A stretch of 54,237 nucleotides of DNA, taken from positions 1 to 54,237 of the IMG/VR virus record IMGVR_UViG_3300049830_000086; one strand, 5' to 3'. This document shows positions 16,676 to 31,128 of the stretch, in pieces (positions within the stretch are counted from its first letter, which is position 1; every line of letters starts with the position of its first letter). The position numbers and the translations under genes were made by a program. The DNA is from a virus (taxonomy: Duplodnaviria; Caudoviricetes). Below the pieces are notes generated by a model that was not told the DNA's origin, did no database searches, and was given only the letters and a program-made list of their open reading frames with translations.

Positions 16676-16684
16676 TAAAATTTG

Positions 16685-16910: not shown

Positions 16911-16917
16911 TTAAATT

Positions 16918-16994: not shown

Positions 16995-17000
16995 ATGAGA

Positions 17001-17594
17001 CTATTTGAAGACTAGCTTAGGTTGAGGCACTATGCAACTCGAAAGAGTTGAAAAGATGCTTTCCTTATTAGTCGTAATTGATGTGACAACAAAGTAATTA
17101 GTGCTGTAAGCCGGCACGATAATTACTACGTTTGTGGTATAGGCTCCAGGCACATAATAAGTTATGTCATAGCAACCTACTTTCGAACCACAATAAATTT
17201 TGTAACCAGAAATATTAGTGTTATTGGGTAGATCCCAATTCACCACTACCTTAGCTTCTAGAAGGACTGCCTTAAAGAACAAGTTAGTCCTGGAGGGATA
17301 AATGCTAATACCATTTGAATCGGTCATCGCAAAGTATTTCCAGTTAATCATGTCAGTTGAAGACAAGACCTGGACTTTGTTACTGCATGACAACGTGTAT
17401 GTCCGGTTAGTTAACACTGGGTTATACACGTTTGTTCCTCTAATACGATTGGTATTAACAATCGCAGAGGGTAGGCTTAGGGTCATCCGTTGACCTGGCA
17501 TTGGAGGCATGACAGCCTGTGTAACTTGAGGTTTCGTCACAGTGCAACCTGCAAGAACAGCTGTGATAACTGCTAGGACGAGTATGTTTTTCAT
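17001..17594 (-). CDS. Lipoprotein with C-terminal fibronectin-III-like domain (start moved to MKNILV)
   Basis: Signal peptide with LAGC lipobox; W......ISGYKIY.G...YFVVTS...ES.FS. Confidence 0.7.
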   Translation of the reverse strand: MKNILVLAVITAVLAGCTVTKPQVTQAVMPPMPGQRMTLSLPSAIVNTNRIRGTNVYNPVLTNRTYTLSCSNKVQVLSSTDMINWKYFAMTDSNGISIYPSRTNLFFKAVLLEAKVVVNWDLPNNTNISGYKIYCGSKVGCYDITYYVPGAYTTNVVIIVPAYSTNYFVVTSITTNKESIFSTLSSCIVPQPKLVFK

Positions 17595-17642
17595 TTTTTT
17601 TTGTTTTGTTGAGGGGTGCCTGTTTCCAAGCACCCCAGTTGA

Positions 17643-18185
17643 TTAGACTACATCGGAACCGATAGCCTTCAAGAAGGTCGTAACGGCAGGAGCTCCGTAA
17701 GTGGCTACGCTAGCTAAGAGATCAGAGCCTGCGGCGCTGAGCAACTCTTTAGCGAACAAACCAGCTTCAGAGCGAGTTACCCCATTGGCTTTATTTGAGC
17801 CAGGGAGATAAAATGAGCTGATGGTATTAGACTTACCATTAGCAGAGACACCGTATGCATAACCACCTTGAACATTGAAAGTTGCATAGATCTTACCATT
17901 TAATTTGAACAAAGAGCCAATTTGGGCGGAATTGTCAACAGTAGGCTTGTAACCGGTGAGGACTTCAGTCAACTCAGCCAAGCGTTGGGTAGTGACATCA
18001 TTAGGCCATTTGTCGAACAAGGCCTGAATATCATTGTGTTCATCTGCTTCAACATCAGGAGAATACTTGTCCATGATCACTTGTGCGAAAGCATGGCTTA
18101 CAGGTGTAGCGTTAGCAACAGCTTTTGCAGTGGAGGTTGAAGGAGCAGCTTGGAAGCTTTGACGAATAGCGAATTTACGACTCAT
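17643..18185 (-). CDS. Hypothetical protein
   Basis: 180-aa ORF followed by GGGGTGC/GCACCCC hairpin. Confidence 0.65.
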   Translation of the reverse strand: MSRKFAIRQSFQAAPSTSTAKAVANATPVSHAFAQVIMDKYSPDVEADEHNDIQALFDKWPNDVTTQRLAELTEVLTGYKPTVDNSAQIGSLFKLNGKIYATFNVQGGYAYGVSANGKSNTISSFYLPGSNKANGVTRSEAGLFAKELLSAAGSDLLASVATYGAPAVTTFLKAIGSDVV

Positions 18186-18266
18186 TAGTGTGTGTTTAGT
18201 TAGTGTTAGTTACGAGTGGTTGTTACCTAGGATGCTCGTACACCCGTGTTTTTTTATTTTTGTAAA

Positions 18267-18343
18267 TGGTGCACTTAGGTGGGATCGAACCACCGACCTG
18301 GGGATTAGAAGGCCCCCGCTCTATCCAACTGAGCTATAAGTGC
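18267..18343 (-). tRNA. tRNA-Arg(TCT)
   Basis: Loop CTTCTAA; CCA. Confidence 0.92.
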
Positions 18344-18344
18344 A

Positions 18345-19157
18345 TTAAATTGCGTCTGGGCAAAGGTGTCTTACTTCACACCATTTGCATAAGTACGATG
18401 GTTTGGTCGGGAATGCCTTATTCCTGATCGCTTCCAGAACTTGATTGATTTCAGTATGCAAACTAGCTTTAAGCTGCTGTAACTGTTCCTTAGTTCTAGT
18501 AGATACCATGTCTTTGTCGTGCTGTAGATAATGCCAGACTAAAGTCACATTCTCTACATTAGGATACATGTCCAATACTCCGAGAGCATAGGTGGCCAAC
18601 TGTCTGTCTTCATCACAGTCTTTCTGAGAAGGCATCTTGTTACCGGTCTTATAGTCATGTACTTCGAGGTGTGTAGGGTTGATCTCATCTATCCTATCAA
18701 CTACTCCACCCATCTTAAATTCTGTGCTATCAGCGATTTTGATCTTTATCCTTTGTTCTACGCTCAACAATTTGTTTTGGTTGAACGGATAAAATCTATT
18801 GTAATAATCGGTTAAGCATTTGATCCCAAGCTCTTTATAGTGAGCCATGGGCTTTTCTCTTCTAACAATTTTGATTCCGGAATGCCATTTGTCCTGCCAC
18901 ATCAATGTATACAAACCAAGTACAGAACTTAAAGTCCAAAGATTGCCTTTACTTGCTTCTAAATAGAGAGCCTCCAAGCATTCGTGTACACGTTTGCCGA
19001 GGAACAGTTCTACAGTATCTACCTTCTCAGCATGTCCGCCTTTAGCAACGTAGATTAACTCATACTTGCGTGGACAGCCTCGGTAGCAGCTTAGGCTAGA
19101 GTGTGAAAATGATCTTGGTTTGGCACTCTTGTCTTGTACTTGATTTGTGTCATTCAT
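18345..19157 (-). CDS. PD-(D/E)XK RecB-family (Cas4-like) exonuclease
   Basis: SHSSL..Y..CP, G..VH..LE, GVVDRID, DYKTG, QL..Y, C-terminal CxxC...C. Confidence 0.88.
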   Translation of the reverse strand: MNDTNQVQDKSAKPRSFSHSSLSCYRGCPRKYELIYVAKGGHAEKVDTVELFLGKRVHECLEALYLEASKGNLWTLSSVLGLYTLMWQDKWHSGIKIVRREKPMAHYKELGIKCLTDYYNRFYPFNQNKLLSVEQRIKIKIADSTEFKMGGVVDRIDEINPTHLEVHDYKTGNKMPSQKDCDEDRQLATYALGVLDMYPNVENVTLVWHYLQHDKDMVSTRTKEQLQQLKASLHTEINQVLEAIRNKAFPTKPSYLCKWCEVRHLCPDAI

Positions 19158-19354
19158 ATTGGAAATTTACAGGTGTTCTTCAAGAACCGTCTGAGCGGGT
19201 GGATACCTCGCTCTCCGGCATGACAGCTGTAAAAGGGCAATGACTTATCAGCAGGCATCACCTTAACCACGGACTTGGAGGTTTCTTGAACCTTACATCC
19301 ATGAGCTTTAGCGACTTCTACTAGATCCCAGAATTCTTTCGACTGGTGTTTCAT
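19154..19354 (-). CDS. Small protein, possibly HicA-like fold
   Basis: 66 aa with alpha-beta-beta-beta-alpha pattern and a late His. Confidence 0.35.
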   Translation of the reverse strand: MKHQSKEFWDLVEVAKAHGCKVQETSKSVVKVMPADKSLPFYSCHAGERGIHPLRRFLKNTCKFPI

Positions 19355-19553
19355 TTGTGTCCTTCCTCAACTGTTCAATTACAGCATCAGCGTATTTAGC
19401 ATACCATTCGTAGTTATACGCAGACATCTGATTCAACAGTGTATCAACTGCCTTGAGCTGGTCAATACTAAATCCATGTTTTTGGATTAAGTCATTGAAG
19501 CGTGAATATAACAAGCTTGTACGTATTCCTTTAGGCGTCAGATTTACTGCCAT
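19308..19553 (-). CDS. Hypothetical protein
   Basis: 81-aa ORF. Confidence 0.5.
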   Translation of the reverse strand: MAVNLTPKGIRTSLLYSRFNDLIQKHGFSIDQLKAVDTLLNQMSAYNYEWYAKYADAVIEQLRKDTNETPVERILGSSRSR

Positions 19554-20166
19554 GGTGATCCACAGGTTTGAATGTTTTCTTAGCCATGATAGCTCTGATT
19601 TGGTCTATACTAACAGGCTTTAGGCCGTGGCAGTCTACACCTACATCAAAACTCATGCTATTAGGATCGTCCGGTAAAGTACCGTGCGAATGTCCATAAA
19701 GATGCCAGGCACCTCTATGACTCTTGTTCCACGTACGCATAGCGTAGTGGCACAGCACTATCTGCTGTCCTTCGATTTGGATTTCGTGAAGGCCTCCAAG
19801 GAACTGAATCCTATCTTTGAGGTCTGGGTAATAATCAATCACCGTTGCAAAATCCTTCAACGGTTTGTCATGGTTACCCCAAATGAACTTGTACTTACCA
19901 TTTAGCCTGCGTAAAAGTCGAATAACGTTTTGAGTACCACCGAAGCAAAAATCGCCTAAGTGAATAACTTCGTCATCTGGCTTAACCAAAGCGTTGTGGT
20001 CAGCTATCATCTTCTCTGTCATCTCGGTAGCGCGCTCTGCTCCTACCGCTTTATTAACCCAAGCTCCATCCTTATCCAAGTCACCTGGCCTAATGTAAGG
20101 CCTCTTAACGTATCTGATGATATTGGCGTGGTAGTAATGGGTGTCACTTTCTATCCATGTTGCCAT
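19531..20166 (-). CDS. Calcineurin-like phosphoesterase (start moved to MATWIESDTH)
   Basis: SDTH..H.NII, HLGD, GNHD, LCHY, LYGHSH, DVGVD. Confidence 0.9.
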   Translation of the reverse strand: MATWIESDTHYYHANIIRYVKRPYIRPGDLDKDGAWVNKAVGAERATEMTEKMIADHNALVKPDDEVIHLGDFCFGGTQNVIRLLRRLNGKYKFIWGNHDKPLKDFATVIDYYPDLKDRIQFLGGLHEIQIEGQQIVLCHYAMRTWNKSHRGAWHLYGHSHGTLPDDPNSMSFDVGVDCHGLKPVSIDQIRAIMAKKTFKPVDHHGSKSDA

Positions 20167-20171
20167 AAAAT

Positions 20172-20249
20172 TGGCGGGAGTGACGAGACTTGAACTCGCG
20201 ACCTCTTGCGTGACAGGCAAGCGCTCTAACTCTTCTGAGCTACACCCCC
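20172..20249 (-). tRNA. tRNA-Asp(GTC)
   Basis: CTTGC-CTGTCAC-GCAAG; G73; CCA. Confidence 0.93.
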
Positions 20250-20256
20250 TTAAAAT

Positions 20257-21546
20257 TCAACGTGTTACGATCGCAGTAAATCCATTGCCTCGTGCTTCAT
20301 ACATCTTTCTTTTTCCAGATACACGAGTGTTGAGAAAATGATCAATTCTTGCTTTAGGTACGGCAGGAAACGCAGTGTAAATGTCTTCCTTAGTTTTGAC
20401 AACGGCTTCTTTGAGGAGGAAATCCTTTATAGCGGTATCTACACGATTGCCTTTTCCTTTACCACAACCTTTTCCTGTTAGCTTGGCATTCCAAGTCGAT
20501 ACTGGTGGTCGGTAGGTTGGGTCCGACTGTTGTATACAGGTTACCATCTTGTCCAACTCCATAGTCATATTGATGACTTGTTCCTTGAACCCGGCTGTTT
20601 GCTCTGTCAAAAACTTTTGTTTTAACTCAGCAATTCTCTTTTCTTCATCTTGTATTTTTTGCCATTGTGTGGCAGCTTCAGGTGTCATAAATCGTTTAGG
20701 TATAAATATGTAAGGTTTATAGTTTAGTGTGCGTCGTAAGCTTAAGTCATCCCATTTTACGTGCACGTATCTGTCTTCGTCGATAGTGATAGGATTAAAA
20801 AGCTCTATGCGGTCTTCAAATCTGTTACTTAATAAATCAGTATCAGATAGCATTTTATTGAAGACTTCAGAATCGTTAGTGCCAAATAACCAACACCATT
20901 TAAGTTTATCTCTAGGATCTGAGATCATCCAATGACGGTAGTATTGTTTTTCTACAATCATATCTGTCAGCGGGTAAGCTTCTGCAATAGATGCTCCGGC
21001 GCGATACGCACCTAAGTTTCGGCAACATTGATTAAAATTTACTCGAACTAGCAGATCGAACTCTGGAAATTTATCGCGATAGAGTTTAACTGTTTTTGAC
21101 GATGGGGCTCCGTAAGGATCAGAGACTACCAATCCTTTTGAGTATTTAGCGCTAATGTCGTTAAGAACGTAGTCCGCTGAGTTATCTCCACGTTTAATAT
21201 GTAGAGGGTAACTTTTGTCTTTTGCAATGTTAATTGCTCTAACTTTTAATGTTTCGGCAGCATCAAGATCATATTCGATAGCAATTATCTCTGTAGACAG
21301 CTCAGGATGATGCTCAAACAGTCTCATAGCTTGCAGAGGTGTACCAAGTATCTCCTCGACAGTACCATTGTTATGTTTGATCACATTGTAACCACATCCT
21401 GCATTGAGCTCACATAACGTGTACTCTTTTGTTTGCATAGCATGGATATGAGACAAGATAATCTGCGGGTACTCTTTTATTTTATCAAGTGTCGATAAGC
21501 TAGTTTTACTAAATGATAACAGCTTATCTTTTTCATGTTCATGCAT
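20257..21546 (-). CDS. TcmP-like (three-Cys-motif partner) methyltransferase-fold protein (start moved to MHEHEK)
   Basis: K......Y, ELNAGCG, GTP, IE.D, GD, DPYG motifs. Confidence 0.55.
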   Translation of the reverse strand: MHEHEKDKLLSFSKTSLSTLDKIKEYPQIILSHIHAMQTKEYTLCELNAGCGYNVIKHNNGTVEEILGTPLQAMRLFEHHPELSTEIIAIEYDLDAAETLKVRAINIAKDKSYPLHIKRGDNSADYVLNDISAKYSKGLVVSDPYGAPSSKTVKLYRDKFPEFDLLVRVNFNQCCRNLGAYRAGASIAEAYPLTDMIVEKQYYRHWMISDPRDKLKWCWLFGTNDSEVFNKMLSDTDLLSNRFEDRIELFNPITIDEDRYVHVKWDDLSLRRTLNYKPYIFIPKRFMTPEAATQWQKIQDEEKRIAELKQKFLTEQTAGFKEQVINMTMELDKMVTCIQQSDPTYRPPVSTWNAKLTGKGCGKGKGNRVDTAIKDFLLKEAVVKTKEDIYTAFPAVPKARIDHFLNTRVSGKRKMYEARGNGFTAIVTR

Positions 21547-21550
21547 AAAT

Positions 21551-21624
21551 TGGAGCGGATAGCGGGAATCGAACCCGCTCAGTGACATTGGAAGAGTCAC
21601 AGGCTACCATTACATCACATCCGC
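21551..21624 (-). tRNA. tRNA-Gly(TCC)
   Basis: Loop CTTCCAA; U73; CCA. Confidence 0.9.
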
Positions 21625-21706
21625 GTTGGCGTAGTCTCTCCCACGGTCACACACTCGGGCCGGTGTTAACAATTCCTCCCAAGTAACGCTTGTGTACGCG
21701 CTAGAT

Positions 21707-22054
21707 TCAGTTGAACTTGAATGGATTATCTGGAGTTGCTTTAGTTGAGCTCTTAGGCTCTTTGAACTTAAAGGCAACCTCAGGTTTATCTGGGTGCTGG
21801 TCAATTTTCATTTTGACCTCCATCAATTTCATTATCAGCCAAAAGCCTTCGATACCAAAAGCGTTAGATTGTGGTCTTACGATGTATCTGGCGATAGCTT
21901 CTTTCATGCCTTGGTATTTTTCTTTGACACTAAGGCCCATGAGTTTCTTGAAGCCTTCTCGGTCTTCATCCGTAATATTTGCTTTGAGTGATCCTGGATT
22001 AGGTTGTGACATTACTTCAAGGATCATGTCAATAGACTGTAGTTCTTCGTCCAT
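21707..22054 (-). CDS. Hypothetical protein
   Basis: 115-aa ORF. Confidence 0.6.
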   Translation of the reverse strand: MDEELQSIDMILEVMSQPNPGSLKANITDEDREGFKKLMGLSVKEKYQGMKEAIARYIVRPQSNAFGIEGFWLIMKLMEVKMKIDQHPDKPEVAFKFKEPKSSTKATPDNPFKFN

Positions 22055-22068
22055 AGTTTTTGTTTTGT

Positions 22069-22143
22069 TGGTGCAGAATAGAGGGATCGAACCTCTGACC
22101 TACTCCGTGTCAGGGAGTCGCTCTACCGCTGAGCTAATTCTGC
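22069..22143 (-). tRNA. tRNA-Val(GAC)
   Basis: ACTCC-CTGACAC-GGAGT; CCA. Confidence 0.93.
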
Positions 22144-22145
22144 AA

Positions 22146-22229
22146 TGGTGCGCGCAGCTGGAGTCGAACCAGCGAACCCGAAGGAGCAGATTTACAGTCT
22201 GCCTGTTTTGACCACTTACCTATACGCGC
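22146..22229 (-). tRNA. tRNA-Tyr(GTA)
   Basis: GCAGA-CTGTAAA-TCTGC; variable arm; CCA. Confidence 0.92.
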
Positions 22230-22235
22230 ATTAAG

Positions 22236-22487
22236 TTATTCTGGATCTAATCTACGTTCCTGGTGCTCAGATAATTTGGCAACAGGTTTGTCGTTGTGTA
22301 TGTCAGGGTAGATCTCGTATTCCACTGACAAAGGACCATAAAGCTGGTAGTCCGGCTTATCTTTAGGAGTAGTTATCAAAGCACCTTCGCCAACGACTTG
22401 TACATTAAGCCGCTGCATAACGTGTTCTTTTACTATCCTATCGATCTCTTCTGAGCTAACCCTGATTTTGCTTGATAAAGGGTTCAT
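22236..22487 (-). CDS. Small protein, tandem paralog 1, C-terminal RRLDPE
   Basis: KIRVSSEEIDRIV N-terminus resembles the two upstream ORFs. Confidence 0.6.
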   Translation of the reverse strand: MNPLSSKIRVSSEEIDRIVKEHVMQRLNVQVVGEGALITTPKDKPDYQLYGPLSVEYEIYPDIHNDKPVAKLSEHQERRLDPE

Positions 22488-22717
22488 AGTGATGGATCCA
22501 TTCTTCTTGTCGATTCGTCTGGATGTGTTGATGGAGAAGCATTGCCTCCCTTAGGTTTAACTGAGAATACAAGGCTTATGGCCCCATAATTGTTATACTC
22601 AGTCTCTCCAAAACGATGCTTAGTAACAGTTATGTCAGTAACATCAACATTAAACTTAGTTTGTACAATCGATTTGAGAGTCTCAGTTATTTCTTTTTCG
22701 CTTAGTCGTATCTCCAT
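22484..22717 (-). CDS. Small protein, tandem paralog 2, C-terminal RRMDPSL (start moved to MEIRLS)
   Basis: MEIRLSEKEITETL; starts 1 nt after the upstream stop. Confidence 0.6.
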   Translation of the reverse strand: MEIRLSEKEITETLKSIVQTKFNVDVTDITVTKHRFGETEYNNYGAISLVFSVKPKGGNASPSTHPDESTRRMDPSL

Positions 22718-22718
22718 A

Positions 22719-22976
22719 TTAGAGGGTTGGGTCGATTCTACGATCCTGGTTGACGGCGTTACTGACAGCGTTGGTCTCCACAACACTCGTCGGTTCAGTG
22801 TTAGGGGGAATAACAGCTTCCTGTATATCCACTCTGGTAGAACTGGTCTGAGAGTCTTTATCATTGTAGTCTTGAAAACTGATAGACATCTTTCCAGCTT
22901 GCTGTAACCCATATCGTTCTTTGATATATCGACCGAGAATGCTAAGGACTTCATTGTTCGTAAATATGATTTTCAT
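22719..22976 (-). CDS. Small protein, tandem paralog 3, C-terminal RRIDPTL
   Basis: MKIIFTNNEVLSIL. Confidence 0.6.
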   Translation of the reverse strand: MKIIFTNNEVLSILGRYIKERYGLQQAGKMSISFQDYNDKDSQTSSTRVDIQEAVIPPNTEPTSVVETNAVSNAVNQDRRIDPTL

Positions 22977-23124
22977 TTTTCTTGTCCTCGGCTTTTAGTC
23001 TGTGTCGAGTAAGACGATTGAGTTTTTGTTTATCCTTGCCTGTGAACTTATTGCAGCATGAGCACTTTAAGCCACCGGGTACGATAAAGCTATGTTGTGT
23101 TGATTTGAATAAGTCCATAAAGGT

Positions 23125-23208
23125 TGGTGCGACTAACTGGACTTGAACCAGTAAGGTATTACCCAGAAGTTTTTGAGACTTCCGCGTCTGCCATTCCGCC
23201 ATAGTCGC
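23125..23208 (-). tRNA. tRNA-Leu(CAA)
   Basis: GAAGT-CTCAAAA-ACTTC; variable arm; CCA. Confidence 0.93.
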
Positions 23209-23217
23209 GATTGAGAT

Positions 23218-23301
23218 TGGTGCTACTAAGAGGACTTGAACCTCTACGTCTTACGACACAAGTCTCTCAAACTTGCGCGGCTGCCATTACGCCATAGTAG
23301 C
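23218..23301 (-). tRNA. tRNA-Leu(GAG)
   Basis: CAAGT-TTGAGAG-ACTTG; variable arm; CCA. Confidence 0.92.
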
Positions 23302-23303
23302 AT

Positions 23304-23377
23304 TGGTGCGCTCACAGAGAATCGAACTCTGGTCAATCGCTTAAAAGGCGGTTGCTTTACCACTAAGCTATAAGCGC
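23304..23377 (-). tRNA. tRNA-Lys(TTT)
   Basis: Loop CTTTTAA; CCA. Confidence 0.9.
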
Positions 23378-23794
23378 TTTATATGTAGGTTTACGCGAGC
23401 ACGTGCGAACTCTGTGACAGTTAGCGCATACTATCTCGCATTTTCTTATTTCAGCTTTCAATGTGCCAATTGGGTAACCTAGATTTACTAAATGAGAAAT
23501 ATTACCAAGTTTTTTACCTTTAACATGGTCAAACTCCAAACAAACTAATCTATCTTCTGGGCAGTCATTACACTTCTTTTTGTATAAAAACTTTAGCATG
23601 AACCTGCGATTGAAAGCTCTCGTTAATAGCTTTCGTTGTTTTACAGCATTCTTATGCTTTACCTTATTGTTACTGTAGTACTCTTTACTTTTTTCTTTGT
23701 TGCACTTTTTACAATAAGGTTGTAATTTTCCTTTACCTTTAGAATTGAACATAGACTCGTCTAAGTCTTCGTCACAGCAATTGCAATGTTTCAT
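23363..23794 (-). CDS. HNH endonuclease
   Basis: CxxC...YCKKC; C.DC.E....LEFDH...EIRKCEIVCANCHRVRT; stop codon inside tRNA-Lys. Confidence 0.88.
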   Translation of the reverse strand: MKHCNCCDEDLDESMFNSKGKGKLQPYCKKCNKEKSKEYYSNNKVKHKNAVKQRKLLTRAFNRRFMLKFLYKKKCNDCPEDRLVCLEFDHVKGKKLGNISHLVNLGYPIGTLKAEIRKCEIVCANCHRVRTCSRKPTYKALIA

Positions 23795-23800
23795 GTTATG

Positions 23801-23829
23801 ATTGTAATTGCCTTTTAACTTATAGTCAA
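23801..23829 (-). promoter_or_regulatory. Sigma70-type promoter, probably leaderless HNH mRNA
   Basis: TTGACT-N17-TACAAT-N6-ATG. Confidence 0.7.
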
Positions 23830-23841
23830 CTTAAAAGTCAT

Positions 23842-23916
23842 TGGTGGAGCTGCGGGGAATCGAACCCCGATTTCCAGCGTGCAAAGCTGGCGTACTACCG
23901 TTATACAGACAACCCC
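23842..23916 (-). tRNA. tRNA-Ala(TGC)
   Basis: G3:U70; CCAGC-TTTGCAC-GCTGG; A73; CCA. Confidence 0.93.
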
Positions 23917-23918
23917 AC

Positions 23919-24377
23919 TTATAAATCTGGATCGAGCCGTCTAGGCTCTTCTTCTTTTTTACCGAACTTACCAACCCCAGATAGGTTAGCCAAGAACTCT
24001 AAGATAGCCTGTGCCATCTCAGACTCACTAGGACAATGCATATAGCCTTTGTCTTTGAAAGGATGCGGGTTCTTCTTAGCATACTCCTGCTTAAACTTAA
24101 CCATGAAGTCTGCCAATTCATCCCGCTTAGATACTATAGCTGTAAAGTCATATGGATGCTCAGGTATATCTGCTACCTTCGTCACTAAACCCAAAGACTT
24201 ACAACCAGGTGCGATCTTCATCAACCATAGACCCTCGCTTAGTTTCATTCTATCTGCGAGGAACTGACCTTCTAGCTCTTGTGCGATACCATTACCACCC
24301 CTTACACGCACACCACTAGCCTTGTCAGTTACAGCTATGTGATACTCGCCACCTTTTCTGTAATAGAGGGTAGGCAT
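23919..24377 (-). CDS. Hypothetical protein, C-terminal RRLDPDL
   Basis: 152-aa coupled ORF. Confidence 0.6.
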   Translation of the reverse strand: MPTLYYRKGGEYHIAVTDKASGVRVRGGNGIAQELEGQFLADRMKLSEGLWLMKIAPGCKSLGLVTKVADIPEHPYDFTAIVSKRDELADFMVKFKQEYAKKNPHPFKDKGYMHCPSESEMAQAILEFLANLSGVGKFGKKEEEPRRLDPDL

Positions 24378-24691
24378 TAGTTTGTCTCGGTTATAGGTGT
24401 AACACGGTAGATGCTGTTTTCAGTATGTAGCAGGTTACCCTCAATTCTTTTGACATAGGAGGTATGGAACAGCCCTGGAGTCATCACACCGTTTCTATTA
24501 GTGCGCATCATGACCAGAGGCTTATCCAGCTCTACATCGTTCTCCAATACACCGATAGCCCAATAATCAATGGGAAGACTGACCGGTCCATTATCTTGAC
24601 CAGCTACATAGCCTTTTCGATCAGGTGTGGGAGCAGCCGGGTTATGCACCGGGCTTAGCTTCTCGATTTTTATTTGAATACCTTTTTTCAT
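24377..24691 (-). CDS. Hypothetical phage protein (start moved to MKKGIQ)
   Basis: F.TS.V..I......TENSIY motif; the longer start overlaps a Y-like RNA. Confidence 0.6.
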   Translation of the reverse strand: MKKGIQIKIEKLSPVHNPAAPTPDRKGYVAGQDNGPVSLPIDYWAIGVLENDVELDKPLVMMRTNRNGVMTPGLFHTSYVKRIEGNLLHTENSIYRVTPITETN

Positions 24692-24702
24692 AGTAAGTTG
24701 TA

Positions 24703-24834
24703 TTGTGGGGAAAAACGTCACAAAGGTTTACGCGCTCTAGCCAATTGAGCTACCTGCCGATAGTCGGCAGGGAAGGGCTCGAACCTCCAACCTCGATCTC
24801 CATAAGATGAACTTTGTAACTTACACCACCACAA
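24703..24834 (-). ncRNA. Y RNA (YrlA)-like element, array copy 1, permuted tRNA module
   Basis: GTGGTGTAAG...GTTCATCTT; T-arm GGAGG-TTCGAGC-CCTTC, acceptor hairpin CTGCCGA-CTA-TCGGCAG, D-arm GCTCAATTGGCTAGAGC; 3' TTTTTCCCCACAA. Confidence 0.8.
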
Positions 24835-24841
24835 AGTGAGC

Positions 24842-24930
24842 AGATAGGGAAAAGCGGACCAACGTTTGCCCCTTTCGGAGCTGGTTTCATTTGCAGTGAA
24901 GATGAACGTCGGGATCCTACACCACTATCT
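24842..24930 (-). ncRNA. Y RNA-like element, array copy 2 (short, no tRNA module)
   Basis: AGATAGTGGTGTAG...GTTCATCTT...TTTTCCCTATCT with paired termini. Confidence 0.7.
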
Positions 24931-24939
24931 AAATTGAAC

Positions 24940-25042
24940 TGCAGGGAAAGTCGAAACAAGAATTGCGGATTTGAACCGCTAAGCCCGGGTTTTACGCCAG
25001 GTTCTTAACCAATAAGATGTATCTCATTTCTACGCCACTGCA
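24940..25042 (-). ncRNA. Y RNA-like element, array copy 3
   Basis: TGCAGTGGCGTAG...TACATCTT...TTTCCCTGCA; internal anticodon-like hairpin and T-arm GCGG-TTCAAAT-CCGC. Confidence 0.7.
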
Positions 25043-25059
25043 AAAGTGTTTGACGGGAA

Positions 25060-25186
25060 GAGGGGAAATCAGCAACGAAAAGTTTGTCACACGTCCTACC
25101 AACTATGTGACGAGGTTTTAACTATATCCTCTCGACTTACGCCGTTTAGCTTTCGCCAAAGATGAACTTCGTTTGCTTCGCCACTC
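25060..25186 (-). ncRNA. Y RNA-like element, array copy 4
   Basis: GAGTGGCGAAG (GNCGAAG consensus)...GTTCATCTT...TTTCCCCTC; multi-hairpin insert. Confidence 0.7.
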
Positions 25187-25196
25187 AAAATTGAAA

Positions 25197-25324
25197 GACA
25201 GGGAAAATTGAACTAACATTGTTTCTGTGCTACCATTACACTACCCCGGCATAAAGCCAGGGCTAGGATTCGAACCTAGACTAGTCTTTTGAACGAAGAT
25301 GAACGTCAATTCTACACCACTGTC
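25197..25324 (-). ncRNA. Y RNA (YrlA)-like element, array copy 5, permuted tRNA module
   Basis: GACAGTGGTGTAG...GTTCATCTT; T-arm CTAGG-TTCGAAT-CCTAG, acceptor CCCTGGC/GCCGGGG, D-arm GTGTAATGGTAGCAC; 3' TTTTCCCTGTC. Confidence 0.8.
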
Positions 25325-25341
25325 AAAAATTCTAGTTCGTG

Positions 25342-25597
25342 TGGTACCGGATAATCGAACAATCCCCGGCTGTTTTAAGTACAGTAACTTGCTAGGTAAC
25401 CCTAGCGTGCTTTCGCACTCCAGTTATATTAGCTCAAAACCAAAACTACTGTGGACTGTACTGGCTGATTGCTCTTTAGTGCATATAGCCTAGCTCTGAG
25501 AGAACACTGGGACTCAGTTGATTAGCGACTGACCGGACCTAGGACCGGTGCTGCTACCTTAAGGTAGCTACCCTGTTTAACAGCTGTCTAACCTCCC
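25342..25597 (-). ncRNA. Unidentified multi-stem structured RNA (~255 nt)
   Basis: Closing stem GCTGTT/AACAGC; hairpins GCTACCTTAAGGTAGC, ACCGG..CCGGT, GTGCGAAAGCAC, GCTAGG..CCTAGC; long-range AGTACAGT/ACTGTACT. Confidence 0.5.
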
Positions 25598-25601
25598 TAA
25601 A

Positions 25602-25925
25602 TTATTTGACCGGCACTAACTTGTAAGATACGCCATCCATCACTATGATAGCCTCATTGTAAGAGGATTTACCGGCTGTTACACTATGGTTGATGGTGCC
25701 TGTATTTGTGTCACCCGTACCAAAGTAGTAGATATAGTGGTAGTGTGTGTCTTGCACATTGTTGATCTTGATGCAATACAATGTCCGACCATCTGGCATA
25801 GTGCACATGACTGTAGGACATTGTGCACTAGCTTGATTTTGAGCGTTGATCTCTACCGGATCTCGCACACAGCCTGCAAGAATTAGTAGAGCAACGACGC
25901 TGAACAGTAATAAGTAATTTTTCAT
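25602..25925 (-). CDS. Lipoprotein
   Basis: MKNYLLLFSVVALLILAGC lipobox. Confidence 0.7.
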   Translation of the reverse strand: MKNYLLLFSVVALLILAGCVRDPVEINAQNQASAQCPTVMCTMPDGRTLYCIKINNVQDTHYHYIYYFGTGDTNTGTINHSVTAGKSSYNEAIIVMDGVSYKLVPVK

Positions 25926-25935
25926 TTTGTTAAGT

Positions 25936-26009
25936 TGGCAGGAGCAGCAGGAATCGAACCTGCACCAATTCTTTTGGAGAGAATCAGGCTACCATTACAC
26001 CATACTCCT
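25936..26009 (-). tRNA. tRNA-Trp(CCA)
   Basis: ATTCT-CTCCAAA-AGAAT; G73; CCA. Confidence 0.92.
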
Positions 26010-26015
26010 ATTTGA

Positions 26016-26432
26016 TTATTGAGCTTTCTTGGAAGGCTTGAAAACACATTCAGGGCAAGCTTTGATAGCCTCGCCAATCTGTTTGAACGTAGCCTTACCA
26101 TCGTCGTTATACTCGGCTAAGGTGAAATTCTCCTCACCCTTGTAACCGGCAGCTGTAATGGCTTTGAAAAATTTCTCTGAATAGGCCAGTTCACCAGATT
26201 CGCCACGCATACGCATATCAGCGATCGCAGCTTTGGATAGCGAGCCTTCACCACCTTCGTATAGGAAGGTACCTTCATAACCTTTTCCAGGCTTAACTTT
26301 GCGGATGTGATGTTGAATCAATCCTAAGCAGCAGAAGCTTTTGCCTTGGTTAGAGAGTTTACCTGTAGTCTGGCTATATTCACCAGAGGTTAGCATAGTA
26401 GTCCAGAGTTTTTGTTTAGCAGTTAGTGTCAT
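26016..26432 (-). CDS. Hypothetical phage protein
   Basis: W...L.SGEY.Q..G.L.....CCLG...ND....F.QI motif common in phage ORFs. Confidence 0.7.
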   Translation of the reverse strand: MTLTAKQKLWTTMLTSGEYSQTTGKLSNQGKSFCCLGLIQHHIRKVKPGKGYEGTFLYEGGEGSLSKAAIADMRMRGESGELAYSEKFFKAITAAGYKGEENFTLAEYNDDGKATFKQIGEAIKACPECVFKPSKKAQ

Positions 26433-26535
26433 AAATTTAGATTAGTTTAAGGTTCGAAACCCTTAGCCCAGACAAAGAACACTTCATTAGAGAGCTTGTA
26501 AGCTAATACAGCTTTCTGTCTATAATGTTCTAAGG

Positions 26536-26778
26536 TTAAGCTAATGATCTGTTGTATTTGTTTAGCTGTGCACATGATACGAACAGGAATAACCTTCTCA
26601 GGCCTTGATACGTCCATTTACCTTTACCAGGTGAAAGGATAGTCAAGCCGCCTGTAATTTTCTGAACTCGCTTATCCCACTCTTTGTGGTGCTTAGTTCT
26701 TATCGGCGTTGTTTTGGGATAGCCGTATTGTGTCGGAACCAGTATCTCGTACAGGTTCTTCTGTTCTTGGTCGTTCAT
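26536..26778 (-). CDS. Hypothetical phage protein
   Basis: YEILVPT...H..WD..V..I.GGLTI..P.KG.W motif. Confidence 0.55.
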   Translation of the reverse strand: MNDQEQKNLYEILVPTQYGYPKTTPIRTKHHKEWDKRVQKITGGLTILSPGKGKWTYQGLRRLFLFVSCAQLNKYNRSLA

Positions 26779-26906
26779 TTATTTTTTGTGAAGCATCTCG
26801 ACACCAGAAGGCACAGTCTATACAACCGTTGCCGCAGCAGTGTCCTATAGCTTGTCCACGCTCGCCTATCGGGTAGCCTGCATGTTGTGTTATTGTAGAC
26901 ATAAAT

Positions 26907-26981
26907 TGGTAGCCTTACAGGGAATCGAACCCTGGTCTACTAATTGAGAATCAGTCGTCCTAGCCGCTAGACGATAAGGCC
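26907..26981 (-). tRNA. tRNA-Glu(CTC)
   Basis: ACTGA-TTCTCAA-TTAGT; Glu-type D-arm GTCTAGCGGCTAGGAC; CCA. Confidence 0.9.
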
Positions 26982-27491
26982 AATCTTTGATCTCGGTATG
27001 TTTTAAGTATGTGACCGAGCTTGTTTTCACCGATTCCTCCCAAGTCCTGACCCCAGTAAGTGTCATTCCAGTGGTTCTTTTCGATGAGAAGTTTTCCTTT
27101 AGTTGCCATGAGATCTTGGAATAAACCAAAGTTCATGTCAAATTTGTGGCGAACGATGTCGCGCATGATAAAGAACCTAACCTTGCCCCAGTCCGACCTC
27201 ATCTCTAGCTTAGAACCCAATTTCTTGGCTTGGCTAGGAGTGGCGGAGGCAAAGATGAAGCGCTTATCACGATCAAGTGTTTTAGCCGCTTGATAGGCAT
27301 TTTCTGAAGAAGGATATAACATTCCTTCAAAGTATACCTGACATGGCTCAAAGTTGCTTAGGAATCGGTAAGGACCAAAGAAGCCAGCAATAGTGTTCTC
27401 GTCATGAACAGCGTATTCTTGCCATCTACCAGCTACCAGCTACATAAGGTTTACCATCTAGAAGCACTTCATTGTAAAGTTCTTCGCTCAT
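26960..27491 (-). pseudogene. NADAR (YbiA-like) family gene frameshifted by a 7-nt tandem duplication
   Basis: IAGFFGPYRFLSNF...YPSSENAYQAAK...R.DW...KF...E.N.W.D.YWG...GEN.LG; removing one GTAGCTG copy (27430-27443) restores frame to the ATG at 27491. Confidence 0.75.
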
Positions 27492-27946
27492 CTTAATTCT
27501 TTCAAGAAATTCAGTGTGTCTTCTTTAGAAAACTTATTTTTACCGTAGTTGACAAATAGGCAAACAAACTCGACATTACCTTGAACATAACCCTTAGAAG
27601 AGTCTATTCTATCTAACGACGCCGAGTTTGGTTTACATTCGCCTCGTTTAGATAAGTGCATTGGGATACCTAGATAAGAACAGTTGCCTTTTTGGTTATC
27701 CCACAAATTTTTTAGATAGCTTAGTGTAATATCAATCTGTAGTTTCTTAACACGTGAACTCTTTTTAGAGTTAGCTAGTATCTCTCTAAATGCAGAGAGT
27801 CCATCTAATCTGTTATGCTTGCTTGCGCAAGATTGATTACAATAAAAGTCATACTTAGAGCTATGTAACCTAAGCTGTCTATCATACTCGTTCTTTTCTT
27901 TTTCAAACGACTTACCACAACCTGCACAAATTAAAGTAATTTTCAT
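27488..27946 (-). CDS. HNH-like homing endonuclease
   Basis: C..CGK.F...FYCNQSC; QKG.C...G; SLDRIDSSKGY..GNV..VC..VN. Confidence 0.82.
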   Translation of the reverse strand: MKITLICAGCGKSFEKEKNEYDRQLRLHSSKYDFYCNQSCASKHNRLDGLSAFREILANSKKSSRVKKLQIDITLSYLKNLWDNQKGNCSYLGIPMHLSKRGECKPNSASLDRIDSSKGYVQGNVEFVCLFVNYGKNKFSKEDTLNFLKELR

Positions 27947-27952
27947 ACCTTA

Positions 27953-28004
27953 ATATTAGCAGTTATGTGGAGACTATACAACTATTTTCTGAATAGTCTC
28001 CACA
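27953..28004 (-). promoter_or_regulatory. Sigma70-type promoter overlapped by a 12-bp inverted repeat
   Basis: TTGTAT-N17-TAATAT-N6-ATG; TGTGGAGACTAT (27966-27977) / ATAGTCTCCACA (27993-28004). Confidence 0.55.
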
Positions 28005-28008
28005 AATC

Positions 28009-28410
28009 TTAGCCTACCCAAACGTAACCTTGTTCAGGAACTTCACCTATTCTTTCTTGAGGTGAGATATCCTTGTCGTAGATCACATGAACGTCTTTAG
28101 ACTTAAGATAGTCTTCTAGAGTGATTAGTTTTTTGTTCTCGTCGTACTTAGTATCAGGAACTTCGACATATTCACCAGCTACGTAATCGCAACCTCTGTG
28201 AAAGGCTGTCATTTGTGCCAAGCTTTCGCCTTCACTAATTGAATAGTCGTTACCGCAGCAAGTACAGGTTATCCTGTCTGGATTGTGTCCGAATCTGTTG
28301 TAGAAAATTATCTTAGCTTCCTTTTCAGGCGCATTGATGTAGATGTGTTCCCATTTTTCTTTGGAACCACCACCACTATGCATATCCCAGAATTGTGTCC
28401 ATTTTGTCAT
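28009..28410 (-). CDS. Hypothetical phage protein (start moved to MTKWTQFWDMHSGG)
   Basis: FWDMHSGG...IYI.A...FG.NP..TC.CCG.DY motif. Confidence 0.65.
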   Translation of the reverse strand: MTKWTQFWDMHSGGGSKEKWEHIYINAPEKEAKIIFYNRFGHNPDRITCTCCGNDYSISEGESLAQMTAFHRGCDYVAGEYVEVPDTKYDENKKLITLEDYLKSKDVHVIYDKDISPQERIGEVPEQGYVWVG

Positions 28411-28418
28411 TGTAAAAT

Positions 28419-28493
28419 TGGTGTCCCTATGGAGAATCGAACTCCAGCCTACGCATGGAAAGTGCGTCGTTCTACCACTAAACATATAGGGAC
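28419..28493 (-). tRNA. tRNA-Glu(TTC)
   Basis: ACGCA-CTTTCCA-TGCGT (unusual C37); CCA. Confidence 0.88.
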
Positions 28494-28582
28494 AATTACC
28501 CGCAAACTTAGCCTCAGTTCACGGGATTAGTAGTTTACGTAGTATCCTTTGCAGAACGCCACATAGGTCTTCACCTAGAAGT

Positions 28583-28657
28583 TGGAGCGATAGATGGGAC
28601 TTGAACCCACAACATTCACGTTGGCAACGTGATGCTCTACCATTGAGCTACTACCGC
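28583..28657 (-). tRNA. tRNA-Gly(GCC)
   Basis: TCACG-TTGCCAA-CGTGA; U73; CCA. Confidence 0.94.
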
Positions 28658-28663
28658 GTTAAA

Positions 28664-28867
28664 TTAGTTATGTACCCACTTTATCAAACAACTCAGACCA
28701 CAGAAGTGATGAGGTTGGTTAATCTCTGGGTGGATCATCATGTCTGTTACAGGCCCTTCATTACAAGGGATTGCCTCGCACTTTAAGACTAACCTGTAGT
28801 CGACTGAATTACTTGTTTTTGTAATGCTTCTGCCACAGCCATCACAAGTTATCTTGGAGTCTTGCAT
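28664..28867 (-). CDS. Small zinc-finger protein
   Basis: CDGC...HFCGLSCL..W. Confidence 0.6.
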   Translation of the reverse strand: MQDSKITCDGCGRSITKTSNSVDYRLVLKCEAIPCNEGPVTDMMIHPEINQPHHFCGLSCLIKWVHN

Positions 28868-29127
28868 TAGACGTCGATTATTGGTTTAAGATCAGGAGGC
28901 AAGAACTCCGCTAAAGGAGCACTGCACTTCGAACAAATTGGAATTCGGATAGGTACTACATCGCCAGACCCGCCGCTAAGAATCATACTGACTCTGCGGA
29001 ACATGATGCCTTCGATGAATACTTCGTTACCACAAGGACATTTGATTGGCGTGGTATCGCTCAGCTTAAGCTGCACTTGGACTCGGCTAACTTGGTGAGA
29101 GTTGGTAGAAAACGGATTTTCACTCAT
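28867..29127 (-). CDS. Small zinc-ribbon protein (start moved to MSENPF)
   Basis: C.CGN..F......R.VS.....P....CSKC. Confidence 0.65.
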   Translation of the reverse strand: MSENPFSTNSHQVSRVQVQLKLSDTTPIKCPCGNEVFIEGIMFRRVSMILSGGSGDVVPIRIPICSKCSAPLAEFLPPDLKPIIDV

Positions 29128-29277
29128 AAAAAATAAGGCTGGTTGTTCTGTTCGCAAACCAGCAAGCGCTTGACCTAAAGTTGGTGACCAGGACTATCAA
29201 TCCTGACCGGCCCTGCAGATTTTGTTTTGGTTTCTCTCCGCTACGCCTCTACTGCATGAATCACATGCTTAAAATAC

Positions 29278-29306
29278 AAAAACCCCTAGGATTTTATTCC
29301 TAGGGG
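29278..29306 (-). terminator. Intrinsic terminator of the attenuator
   Basis: CCCCTAGGA-ATAAAA-TCCTAGGGG followed by TTTTTGTATTTT. Confidence 0.85.
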
Positions 29307-29334
29307 TGTAAACTCTTCTACACTACACCCCTAG
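29300..29334 (-). promoter_or_regulatory. Antiterminator hairpin, mutually exclusive with the terminator
   Basis: CTAGGGGTGTA (includes the leader stop codon) pairs perfectly, 11 bp, with TACACCCCTAG, which overlaps the terminator 5' arm. Confidence 0.75.
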
Positions 29335-29435
29335 AACATAAATTCCGCACTTGTAAGTGCTGGAATCTGGGCATAATTATCCCAGCCGGTTCTTTTTACC
29401 GGTTGCGTTCCGCGTGATGTATGTAACAAAGTCAT
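29331..29435 (-). CDS. 34-aa attenuator leader peptide MTLLHTSRGTQPVKRTGWDNYAQIPALTSAEFMF (not in ORF track)
   Basis: Lies between promoter and terminator; 32 distinct codons, 19 amino acids. Confidence 0.7.
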   Translation of the reverse strand: MTLLHTSRGTQPVKRTGWDNYAQIPALTSAEFMF

Positions 29436-29448
29436 TGAACTTATCTTA

Positions 29449-29477
29449 ACTTTACAAGAAGTGCTGAGAACTGTCAA
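29449..29477 (-). promoter_or_regulatory. Sigma70-type promoter heading the tRNA island
   Basis: TTGACA-N17-TAAAGT. Confidence 0.75.
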
Positions 29478-29480
29478 CAC

Positions 29481-29900
29481 TTAATCGTCACTTTCTGTAT
29501 ATTCATTTTTAAGAATACTTTTACGTTCAGTAGTCCAGCGTTTGCCAGTTCGTACACGTTCAAAGTAATCTTCAAAAGTAATAACAGTAGCTTCAATTAT
29601 TGTAAAGTTGTAAGTTTGATTTTTTGGTGGAAACAATGGATTCTTTCCAGGTAAGGGTATTAGGTTAAGATAGTCACTATAACGTAACCTAAGTCCTCTA
29701 AAGTTAAATTCCCGGTCACCATAGAAAAGGTCAGTGTACTTACCATTGACTTCTTGGTCAGTCAAAACTTTAGGAATGTCTTTAGTAGCTGCCTCTACTT
29801 TTGAAAATATTTCGTAGACCGCTGCGTGAGGATCTTGATGCTCAAAAAACGTGTACTCCTCACTATACCAGCGGCCTATGTCTAGCAATACAAGTCTCAT
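29481..29900 (-). CDS. Hypothetical protein
   Basis: 139-aa ORF. Confidence 0.55.
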   Translation of the reverse strand: MRLVLLDIGRWYSEEYTFFEHQDPHAAVYEIFSKVEAATKDIPKVLTDQEVNGKYTDLFYGDREFNFRGLRLRYSDYLNLIPLPGKNPLFPPKNQTYNFTIIEATVITFEDYFERVRTGKRWTTERKSILKNEYTESDD

Positions 29901-29923: not shown

Positions 29924-30229
29924 TTAAAGGTTTGCGGCTAAGTTTATAGCTTCTTTCAGGTTTTCAATTAGGGAGATATGTACATCAAGTTGCCTAGCTT
30001 GCGCCAACATTCTTTGAAGATGTTCAATCAGTTTTATCTGATGGTCTGCTAGTACGTGAGTGTAACTGATTAGGTCTAGTGCTTCTTCCCTGACATTAAG
30101 TACGGTAGGCTTAGCAAAGAAATTTCCGCCATGCTCCTTCTGTCCCTTAGCATATTTGATTTCAATCTCGCGTCCTACTGTCTTAGCTATATTACTGGCT
30201 TGCAATACCGGGTCAAATTCTTCGCTCAT
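29924..30229 (-). CDS. Hypothetical protein (start moved to MSEEFD)
   Basis: KY.KGQ.EHGG...EEALD...Y helical motif. Confidence 0.55.
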   Translation of the reverse strand: MSEEFDPVLQASNIAKTVGREIEIKYAKGQKEHGGNFFAKPTVLNVREEALDLISYTHVLADHQIKLIEHLQRMLAQARQLDVHISLIENLKEAINLAANL

Positions 30230-30315
30230 GTTTAACTTCGTTGTGGTTGACGGCGAACTGTTGTCCACATACCAGGCATTCAACATGGTATGTGGACAAC
30301 AGTTCGCCGTCTATA

Positions 30316-31128
30316 TTAGGCTGATGCTGGTGATGTATTCTGAACTCTGACTTGTTCGAGCACTTCGTTGGTGCCACGCGTGAACACTTCACCTTGTTTA
30401 TTAAATCCTGGCTGTTCAAAGACATAACTCCAATACCTCGTATCATTTTGGCTTTGTACCTTGTCCCAATAGACATTTCGTGCCATGAAGGCGGGAATGT
30501 TTTTTAGCTTACACTGGACTACCCAATGTTGCTCTAATGTTTTATATCTGCTGGGAGAAGGAACAGGGCTTGATTTCTGTCCATATAGTTGCAGCATGTG
30601 AGTGTCTAGACAAGTCACTTCACATTCGTTAGGATAGCATAATTCGATCGCGAATGCCGTCTTAGCATAGCCAAGACCGTGCACCTGATTCATTGTTCTA
30701 TGCCTGAACATGTCCCAAGTTTCTGTAGGTTTCTTGCGCCAAAAGCTTGGATTGGCGTAGAATGTTTGTGTGAACTCCCACATACCTTTGCTTCTCATAG
30801 TGGTCAAGCCTACGCCTGATGCTGTTATGATGTCAGTGAGTTCAGCCTTAGTTTTGAATGTCTGTCTCGTTACATTAAGATAGCCTTTTACATTAGCCTT
30901 CCATCCGCAGTGTACGGAGAGGAAAGCGAACAGCCACCTTTTGTAGTGCTCGTCATCTGTTTGAGGAGCGATTGACTGCCAGTAAGCTTGATAGTCTGCT
31001 ATCTGCTTAGTGTCGAGTCCGGAGATGTAGTCAGCGATGGTTTTGTTTTTGAATCCAGTTTCTGGCTGCACTACAATACTTTTGTCGTTGAGTTTAGCGT
31101 AGTATTGAGCGTTAGTTAGAATAGCCAT
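30316..31128 (-). CDS. HhH-superfamily DNA glycosylase/lyase-like protein
   Basis: FAFLS, HhH motif VHGLGYAKTAF, catalytic-type LDTHM. Confidence 0.7.
   Translation of the reverse strand: MAILTNAQYYAKLNDKSIVVQPETGFKNKTIADYISGLDTKQIADYQAYWQSIAPQTDDEHYKRWLFAFLSVHCGWKANVKGYLNVTRQTFKTKAELTDIITASGVGLTTMRSKGMWEFTQTFYANPSFWRKKPTETWDMFRHRTMNQVHGLGYAKTAFAIELCYPNECEVTCLDTHMLQLYGQKSSPVPSPSRYKTLEQHWVVQCKLKNIPAFMARNVYWDKVQSQNDTRYWSYVFEQPGFNKQGEVFTRGTNEVLEQVRVQNTSPASA

Follow-up and report, generated by a model that had tools for sequence, protein, structure and literature searches.

A putative leader-peptide attenuator with a codon-diverse reading frame at the entrance to a phage tRNA island

We analysed a 54,237-nucleotide (nt) stretch of viral DNA, called the window throughout (IMG/VR record IMGVR_UViG_3300049830_000086, positions 1 to 54,237; Duplodnaviria, Caudoviricetes). 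On its minus strand, at the entrance to a tRNA island, lies a short leader in which a promoter-like site, a 34-codon open reading frame (ORF), an antiterminator and an intrinsic terminator follow one another. We propose, with a probability of roughly 0.55, that this leader is a ribosome-mediated (leader-peptide) transcription attenuator whose ORF samples the whole genetic code. The anatomy is conserved in other uncultured phages despite unrelated leader peptides, and codon diversity is raised in the frame of the ORF and not in the other two frames.

The putative sigma70-like promoter (29449..29477; this and all window features below are on the minus strand unless stated) consists of a -35 element TTGACA at 29477..29472, a 17-nt spacer and a -10 element TAAAGT at 29454..29449. 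It matches the consensus at 10 of 12 positions, has the top sigma70-like score between 24000 and 34000, and begins 3 nt after the end of the upstream ORF (29900..29481). Judged by this pattern match, transcription would start just ahead of the leader ORF, whose ATG sits 13 nt past the -10 element, giving a predicted 5' untranslated region of about 6 nt. The ORF itself (29331..29435) has 34 sense codons followed by TAG and carries no Shine-Dalgarno sequence. The lack of one is uninformative here because 62 of the 66 long ORFs of the contig have none either (GGAG, GAGG or AGGA occurs 4-20 nt before the ATG in 4 of 66). The regions upstream of the window ORFs are A/C-rich and G-poor, so the phage, and presumably its host, initiate translation without Shine-Dalgarno pairing.

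The window leader has the four-segment layout of a classical attenuator. Segment 1 (29406..29433, codons 1-10) is the 5' strand of a long-range helix that pairs with the stop-codon region (29338..29311), and through this pairing it is modelled to act as an anti-antiterminator. Segment 2 (29324..29334), the 5' arm of the antiterminator, contains the TAG stop codon and pairs at 11 of 11 positions with segment 3 (29300..29310), the 3' arm, to give a hairpin of -18.2 kcal/mol. Eight of the 11 nt of segment 3 double as the 5' arm of the intrinsic terminator (29278..29307), which has a 10-bp stem (29307..29298 / 29291..29282), a 6-nt loop and a T run at 29282..29278. The terminator hairpin (29307..29282) is predicted at -17.7 kcal/mol and is hence nearly isoenergetic with the antiterminator, with which it shares these 8 nt. 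The minus strand of the window has only three strong terminator-like sites, of which this is one. A preliminary description of this DNA, made from the letters alone, had reported the promoter, the 34-codon ORF, the fully paired antiterminator and the overlapping terminator, and each of them is present where it was placed.

The 171-nt leader RNA has a minimum free energy of -63 kcal/mol (z -6.25), and none of 200 shuffled sequences was as good. In the predicted fold the helix between codons 1-10 and the stop region closes three hairpins internal to the ORF (29402..29386, 29385..29367 and 29366..29342), and the terminator stands alongside. Rfam yielded no family match for the leader, only chance-level scores; the His_leader model (RF00514) reached 18.2 bits against a gathering threshold of 49 (E 2.5), mainly on the terminator.

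The codon content of the window ORF is unusual. Its 34 codons include 32 distinct ones, ATG and ACA occurring twice each, and they specify 19 amino acids (all but Cys) and use all four Thr codons. Under uniform draws of 34 codons, 26.2 distinct codons are expected on average, and 32 or more turn up with a probability of 0.0018. Among the stop-free 34-codon windows in all six frames of this contig, only 5 of 24,857 contain 32 distinct codons, and one of these also has at least 19 amino acids. The preliminary description had given the same counts with a uniform expectation of about 26 and had proposed the comparison with genomic windows; both the counts and the rarity are borne out.

The leader unit is present in 10 further contigs from uncultured phages, which makes 11 units with the window. 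Five of them (L005, L001, L009, L020 and L012) were found by synteny with the UvsX-like gene; its protein has many metagenomic relatives, and an alignment of 30 of these led to 35 loci. The other five (L039, L040, L041, L044 and L095) were found through a structured RNA motif named block 2, described below, which follows the terminator in the window. Searches for related loci with single neighbouring proteins or with UvsX alone found none, and only the alignment-based scans succeeded. The conserved gene order is a 345-amino-acid (aa) ORF, UvsX, a resolvase-like ORF and a 270-aa ORF, with tRNA genes soon after. The unit of L001 is identical in L015-L019, which are copies without variation.

By our reading, all 11 units have a putative sigma70-like promoter followed by a first ATG that opens an ORF of 19-56 codons, and the ATG lies 7-13 nt past the -10 element in 8 of the 10 units measured. 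In all 11, by eye, the stop codon lies in, or at most about 12 nt from, the strand complementary to the terminator 5' arm, and the nearest tRNA gene on the same strand begins 140-811 nt past the terminator. The alternative hairpins are kept in all contigs with differing arm sequences, and the peptides resist alignment. In the 250-kb record to which L039 belongs, the unit stands at the head of an array of 32 tRNA genes. The expectation set out in the preliminary description, namely that leaders before the tRNA arrays of related large phages would retain codon diversity and antiterminator/terminator pairing despite divergent peptides, has held: in related and unrelated phages alike, the ORF, the stop at the antiterminator, the pairing and the high diversity of amino acids and codons persist. 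A strict scan for a terminator, an antiterminator and an ORF stop at the arm, run on both strands of 38 loci (557 kb), gave 11 matches. Seven fell on the 10 units then known (L005, L039 and L041 were missed), and none lay elsewhere in the window. A close relative in run X4 has lost a net 3 nt, in frame, from the loop of the first internal ORF hairpin.

A blastn search of the locus against cultured phages gave no match. Because the UvsX-like protein has no relative above 32% identity in a cultured phage (its best is <= 32%), no laboratory phage carrying the unit was identified.

The numbers of amino acids and codons in the 11 leaders are 19/34, 20/33, 13/19, 18/31, 20/43, 20/56, 20/46, 14/26, 11/19, 19/43 and 19/32. 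The eight leaders of at least 31 codons each use 18-20 amino acids, four of them all 20 and three of them 19, and they fall in the upper tail of null distributions drawn from the same loci (short ORFs and gene windows), as did the seven known earlier. The window was omitted from the summed test because it had been chosen for its diversity. The other ten leaders together contain 174 distinct amino acids, compared with 152.5 +/- 4.4 under a uniform 61-codon null (z 4.9), and 291 distinct codons, compared with 260.7 +/- 6.1 (z 5.0). For either measure, none of 1,000,000 simulations was as high, and the uniform-codon null is the one most favourable to diversity.

This diversity is specific to the reading frame. 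Over the 11 leaders the ORF frame has 323 distinct triplets out of 382, and the two alternative frames have 280 of 371 and 287 of 371, values that by our own calculation are those expected of random sequence. The amino-acid count is highest in the ORF frame for 10 of 11 leaders. Synonymous choice contributes as well: given the peptides, uniform choice would yield 303.9 +/- 5.3 distinct codons (observed 323, P 1e-4), and 10 of the 11 leaders exceed their own expected mean. A bias confined to one frame is hard to explain unless that frame is read, and we therefore take it as indirect evidence that the leader ORF is translated and that its codon content is under selection.

The preliminary description had further proposed one codon for each of the phage's own tRNA species. 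In the window, 26 of the 30 distinct anticodons do read a codon of the leader, and the four that do not are those it had named (Leu-TAG, Lys-CTT, Val-GAC and Glu-CTC); the expectation given 32 distinct codons is 21.7 +/- 1.9 (P 0.02). The design is not general. In G001, the second phage tested, the leader codons are read by 20 of the 27 anticodons of its own array, the null being 20.5 (P 0.69), and the array lacks Gly, Asp, His and Tyr tRNAs (ARAGORN) though the leader has those residues. Since the match in G001 is no better than chance, the leader appears to sample the code and not the phage's own tRNA list, and we rejected, as a general rule, a leader that mirrors the tRNA set of its phage. 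The absence of Cys from both the window leader and the window tRNA set is probably coincidental.

In the mechanism that we infer, a transcript would start at the sigma70-like promoter with the ATG at, or a few bases from, its 5' end, and the 34-codon ORF would be translated while RNA polymerase moves ahead. Four segments would then compete: the early ORF (1), the stop region (2), and segments 3 and 4, through pairings 1:2, 2:3 (the antiterminator) and 3:4 (the terminator). A lead ribosome that has already arrived at the final codons or the stop by the time segment 3 emerges would cover segment 2, so that 3:4 forms and transcription terminates at 29278-29282. If the ribosome is delayed earlier in the ORF, 2:3 would form first and polymerase would read through into block 2, the small ORFs and the tRNA genes. 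With nearly every amino acid present once or twice and few repeats, translation time would integrate almost all aminoacyl-tRNA supplies, and a shortage of almost any aminoacyl-tRNA would give more read-through. Consistent with a leader-peptide attenuator are the promoter-proximal short ORF, the mutually exclusive hairpins with a sequestering segment, and the stop codon over the 5' strand of the antiterminator. Clustered regulatory codons for the supplied amino acid or acids are not present in the window leader, which contains no codon runs, and the family as a whole is biased the other way.

We examined the switch by folding in 10 leaders. Transcripts cut before the terminator 3' arm form the antiterminator in 9 of 10. 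When a ribosome was represented by a mask of 28 nt around the A site on transcripts cut at the decision point, the terminator 5' arm in the window, L012 and L041 was freed only with the A site on the stop or on one of the final 4-8 codons, and the pattern was partial in L001, L009, L039 and L040. The earlier proposal that a ribosome arriving at the stop masks the antiterminator is thus reproduced in three leaders and in part in four, and it finds no counterpart in the remaining three. In full-length folding of the window leader, the antiterminator wins just at A-site codons 4 and 7-11. In our view full-length equilibrium folding is the wrong way to model a kinetic device, and thermodynamic proxies are unable to settle a kinetic question.

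Several points weigh against an attenuator that samples the whole code. The masked switch pattern is absent in L005, L020 and L044 and is clear in just 3 of 10 leaders, the cut-transcript model gives the antiterminator even without a ribosome, and full-length equilibrium folding with the mask gives the terminator at nearly all ribosome positions. The units were chosen by eye, with the leader ORF taken as the first ATG after the -10 element, and the diversity tests overstate independence because the window's clade contributes six leaders that are homologous. In amino-acid content the three short leaders, of 19, 19 and 26 codons, show no unusual diversity. The match between leader codons and anticodons in the window is weak given the diversity of the leader, and in G001 it is at chance. 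The unit is absent, by eye and by scanner, from L007 and from the distant relatives L026-L034 despite their tRNA arrays. Compared with the codon runs of classical attenuators, single codons respond far more weakly when starvation is partial. Control of the entire 29 kb by a single attenuator would be a further step beyond the leader itself, as would a link between the leader and anticodon-nuclease defences.

The same anatomical evidence would fit a device that reports how closely ribosomes follow polymerase, and hence translation capacity, ribosome availability or infection stage, and not the tRNA pool. Varied codons would make such a timer insensitive to any single amino acid. One codon per amino acid offers little leverage under partial starvation, as is known from the his, phe and thr leaders; short family leaders with just 11-14 amino acids exist; and the codons of the G001 leader do not match its own anticodons. 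A timer would, however, have no need of rare residues, yet seven of the eight longer leaders have 19 or all 20 amino acids, and the synonymous codons of the 11 leaders are diversified beyond uniform choice. In addition, near-total loss of one tRNA through an anticodon nuclease would be expected to stall a ribosome even at a single codon. We regard a timer of this kind as improbable, though it is the strongest competitor to whole-code attenuation.

Considerably less probable is an RNA-only element, either a structured small RNA of about 165 nt or a riboswitch-like leader that responds to a ligand, a protein or a tRNA, with the ORF untranslated. The very stable four-way junction fold (z -6.25), the missing Shine-Dalgarno sequence, the second structured RNA directly after the leader and the recurrence of hairpins inside the ORF in relatives with different sequences all speak for it. 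So does a relative contig in run X5, with about 89% identity across 29167-29720. The differences listed for it are in the loop and terminal pair of the antiterminator, in the terminator loop and, densely, in the neighbouring upstream gene, which differs at about 16% of positions, and none is listed in the ORF. The placing of these differences and the frame-preserving deletion in X4 also count in favour of the attenuator; a further 15 differences are unlisted, which leaves conservation of the ORF in X5 uncertain. In contrast, an untranslated RNA would not account for an ATG-to-stop frame in 11 of 11 units despite unrelated peptides, with the stop always at the antiterminator arm, nor for codon diversity raised solely in the ORF frame while the other two stand at random expectation. 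The Shine-Dalgarno argument is blunted by its absence from 62 of 66 long ORFs, and the RNA matches no Rfam family.

An ordinary small protein gene next to the terminator of the upstream operon, with pairing and codon diversity of no regulatory meaning, is very unlikely: small ORFs abound in phage genomes and the terminator could end the UvsX-side operon, but it is the RNA pairing, the stop position and the promoter that are conserved and not the peptide, the unit has its own promoter and stands before tRNA genes in unrelated contigs, and a protein search with the 56-aa leader peptide of L012 returned no homologue. A tmRNA-like or tRNA-like leader, suggested by the tmRNAs near the arrays of L026 and G001, was rejected, as neither ARAGORN nor Rfam calls one and the ORF starts with its ATG at the 5' end.

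Whole-code attenuation can be taken one step further, although only tentatively, to a 'code pangram' sensor: a leaderless mini-ORF running once through nearly all amino acids and the widest possible set of codons, coupled to an antiterminator/terminator switch, so that depletion of almost any tRNA would delay the lead ribosome and turn on the tRNA array, block 2 and the RNA-repair-like enzymes. Its triggers, if it exists, could include host anticodon nucleases or a phage-induced shut-off of the host, and it would amount to a generic counter-measure, under feedback control, against attacks on the tRNA pool. Such a sensor would also be the first case of a leader peptide in which selection favours maximal and not minimal codon variety.

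The tRNA island behind the leader (433..28657) contains 31 tRNA genes interspersed with ORFs. Both ARAGORN and Rfam arrive at this count; the genes all lie on the minus strand and cover 19 amino acids, with none for Cys. The preliminary description was right that the set lies downstream on the same strand and lacks Cys, and its count of 32 gives way to 31. A sub-threshold YrlA (Y RNA-like) match at 24712..24810 (35.9 bits against a gathering score of 69, E 3e-4) may be a tRNA-like RNA or the gene that had been counted as the 32nd tRNA. The RNase P that had been placed in the island did not stand up, since Rfam finds no RNase P RNA at threshold anywhere in the window; a partial match to archaeal RNase P RNA lies at 10248..10442 (25 bits against a gathering score of 84). 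The alanyl-tRNA synthetase (AlaRS) reported there proved to be AlaRS-like, although a fragment: the 235-aa product of 517..1224 matches only the first part of the class II enzyme.

The island also encodes RNA-repair-like proteins at 4670..6378, 14968..15747 and 19531..20220, comprising an AAA_28 protein beside a ligase and two metallophosphoesterases. The ligase, which adjoins the AAA_28 protein, is ATP-dependent and matches both DNA-ligase and RNA-ligase families. A PD-(D/E)XK nuclease is encoded in the island as well. This RNA-repair-like gene set fits a possible role in upkeep of the tRNA pool. Directly behind the leader come two ORFs, 29127..28867 (86 aa from the ATG, with a CxC...CxxC pattern) and 28867..28664 (67 aa). 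Pfam and PHROGs gave no family for the ORFs flanking the leader, and a homologue of 29127..28867 follows block 2 in L005. On the minus strand no strong intrinsic terminator is found from 29283 to position 1, and several promoter-like sites besides the leader promoter lie within the island.

Block 2 (29138..29252) is a structured RNA motif of about 115 nt, recognised by sequence comparison, that directly follows the terminator. Its elements are, in order, GUAGA, helix A (GGC, AGA, stem, AGA, GCC), hairpin B, hairpin C, CAAGCG and hairpin D. Helix A carries a symmetric AGA/AGA internal loop, hairpin B is variable, hairpin C is a 3-bp hairpin of the form ACC AACNNNA GGU and the loop of hairpin D resembles CGAUAUA. 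The element GUAGAGGC is invariant, and the stems covary. In the window the motif is followed by a T run and then by the ATG at 29127.

Block 2 is conserved in sequence between the window, L005 (~9780-9893) and L012 (~15972-16074). Two pattern scans of viral contigs added copies in L040 (~632-725) and L041 (~1563-1660) and, on the minus strand, in L039 (~11065-10960), L044 (~888-775) and L095; L045 is a partial copy of L044. The second scan returned 59 stretches, of which six were true (five known already) and the rest GC-rich coding sequence; the false positives of the first scan were coding sequence as well. In each of L039, L040, L041, L044 and L095 a leader unit lies upstream of block 2, and in L040 a small ORF and a separate promoter stand between the two. 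Rfam has no family matching block 2, and blastn with the window and L044 copies gave chance matches only and no cultured phage with the motif. Among the at least 120 matches listed from a scan of genome contigs, none has the upstream half of block 2, which is the chance level and uninformative on its absence from bacteria. We consider block 2 a further candidate for a new RNA class tied to phage tRNA arrays.

Other RNA features lie near the leader or the arrays. Between the window ORFs 29924..30286 and 30316..31128, a long near-perfect hairpin (30249..30311) is matched on both strands by several microRNA-precursor models. A tmRNA gene lies beside the tRNA arrays of related or similar large phages, G001 among them, and G001 also has a tRNA with the suppressor-like anticodon CTA; the positions of these features are L026 13887-14278 and L103 18443-18850 and 16150-16225. 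Upstream of the UvsX-like gene of L005, positions 4030-4274 resemble a group I intron below threshold (38.2 bits, gathering score 50, E 1.4e-6). Four distant relatives without the leader share a CTTTACTTT-containing motif (L027 ~13400, L032 ~13510, L033 ~13530 and L034 ~13550). It stands some 25-35 nt ahead of the start codon of a small acidic ORF, itself conserved and placed in front of their tRNA arrays, and may be a phage-specific promoter.

We regard a family of attenuators before the tRNA genes of several uncultured phages as previously undescribed. A literature search over titles and the starts of abstracts returned nothing on all-amino-acid leader peptides or on attenuators before phage tRNA arrays, and no regulatory logic for such arrays turned up at that level. 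It is debated why phages express tRNAs of their own and when they do so, with codon compensation and escape from tRNA-cleaving defences both proposed (for example PMC10264068). If our reading is correct, a cis element that reads overall decoding capacity and gates the tRNA array would supply such a regulatory logic. At about 165 nt the leader is a compact part that is directly testable in cell-free systems.

Among known systems, T-box riboswitches likewise tie read-through to the state of tRNA via a choice between antiterminator and terminator. They bind one specific uncharged tRNA directly, without translation, and have conserved Stem I and T-box sequences. Unlike them, the leader would need translation in our model, and the T-box model gives no match at E <= 10 over 28650..29550, nor at E <= 0.05 over the whole window.

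The pyrBI and pyrE attenuators of enterobacteria respond to coupling: a ribosome close behind polymerase blocks the pyrBI terminator, so that tight coupling gives read-through. The phage leader resembles them in having an ORF without regulatory amino-acid codons and in a signal that would be the distance between ribosome and polymerase. Its geometry predicts the inverse of pyrBI, however, with a ribosome at the stop leading to termination.

The closest known systems are the classical leader-peptide attenuators trpL, hisL, pheL, thrL, leuL and ilvL of Proteobacteria and the leaderless polycysteine ORFs described below. In common with the classical attenuators, the phage unit has a promoter-proximal short ORF, mutually exclusive 1:2, 2:3 and 3:4 hairpins and an intrinsic terminator, as well as a stop codon placed so that a terminating ribosome would mask segment 2, the position of the ribosome relative to polymerase deciding the outcome. 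It differs in lacking a run of one or two amino acids and in its near-complete coverage with almost no repeated codon. It is, in addition, phage-borne, has tRNA genes and not biosynthetic enzymes downstream, and lacks a Shine-Dalgarno sequence, its ATG standing beside the predicted transcription start. The pheL and his-leader attenuators are treated in PMC3082878 and PMC4046918.

Leaderless short ORFs are also known from mycobacteria, where polycysteine ORFs enriched in Cys are reported to control cysteine-related operons (bioRxiv 10.1101/834739). The phage leader would share with them a short ORF at the extreme 5' end that serves as a cis sensor for the genes behind it. It differs in its maximal variety as opposed to a single amino acid, in the tRNA array that follows it and in its explicit antiterminator/terminator pair. 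If confirmed, the phage leader would extend leader-peptide attenuation from the sensing of one amino acid to that of the whole code.

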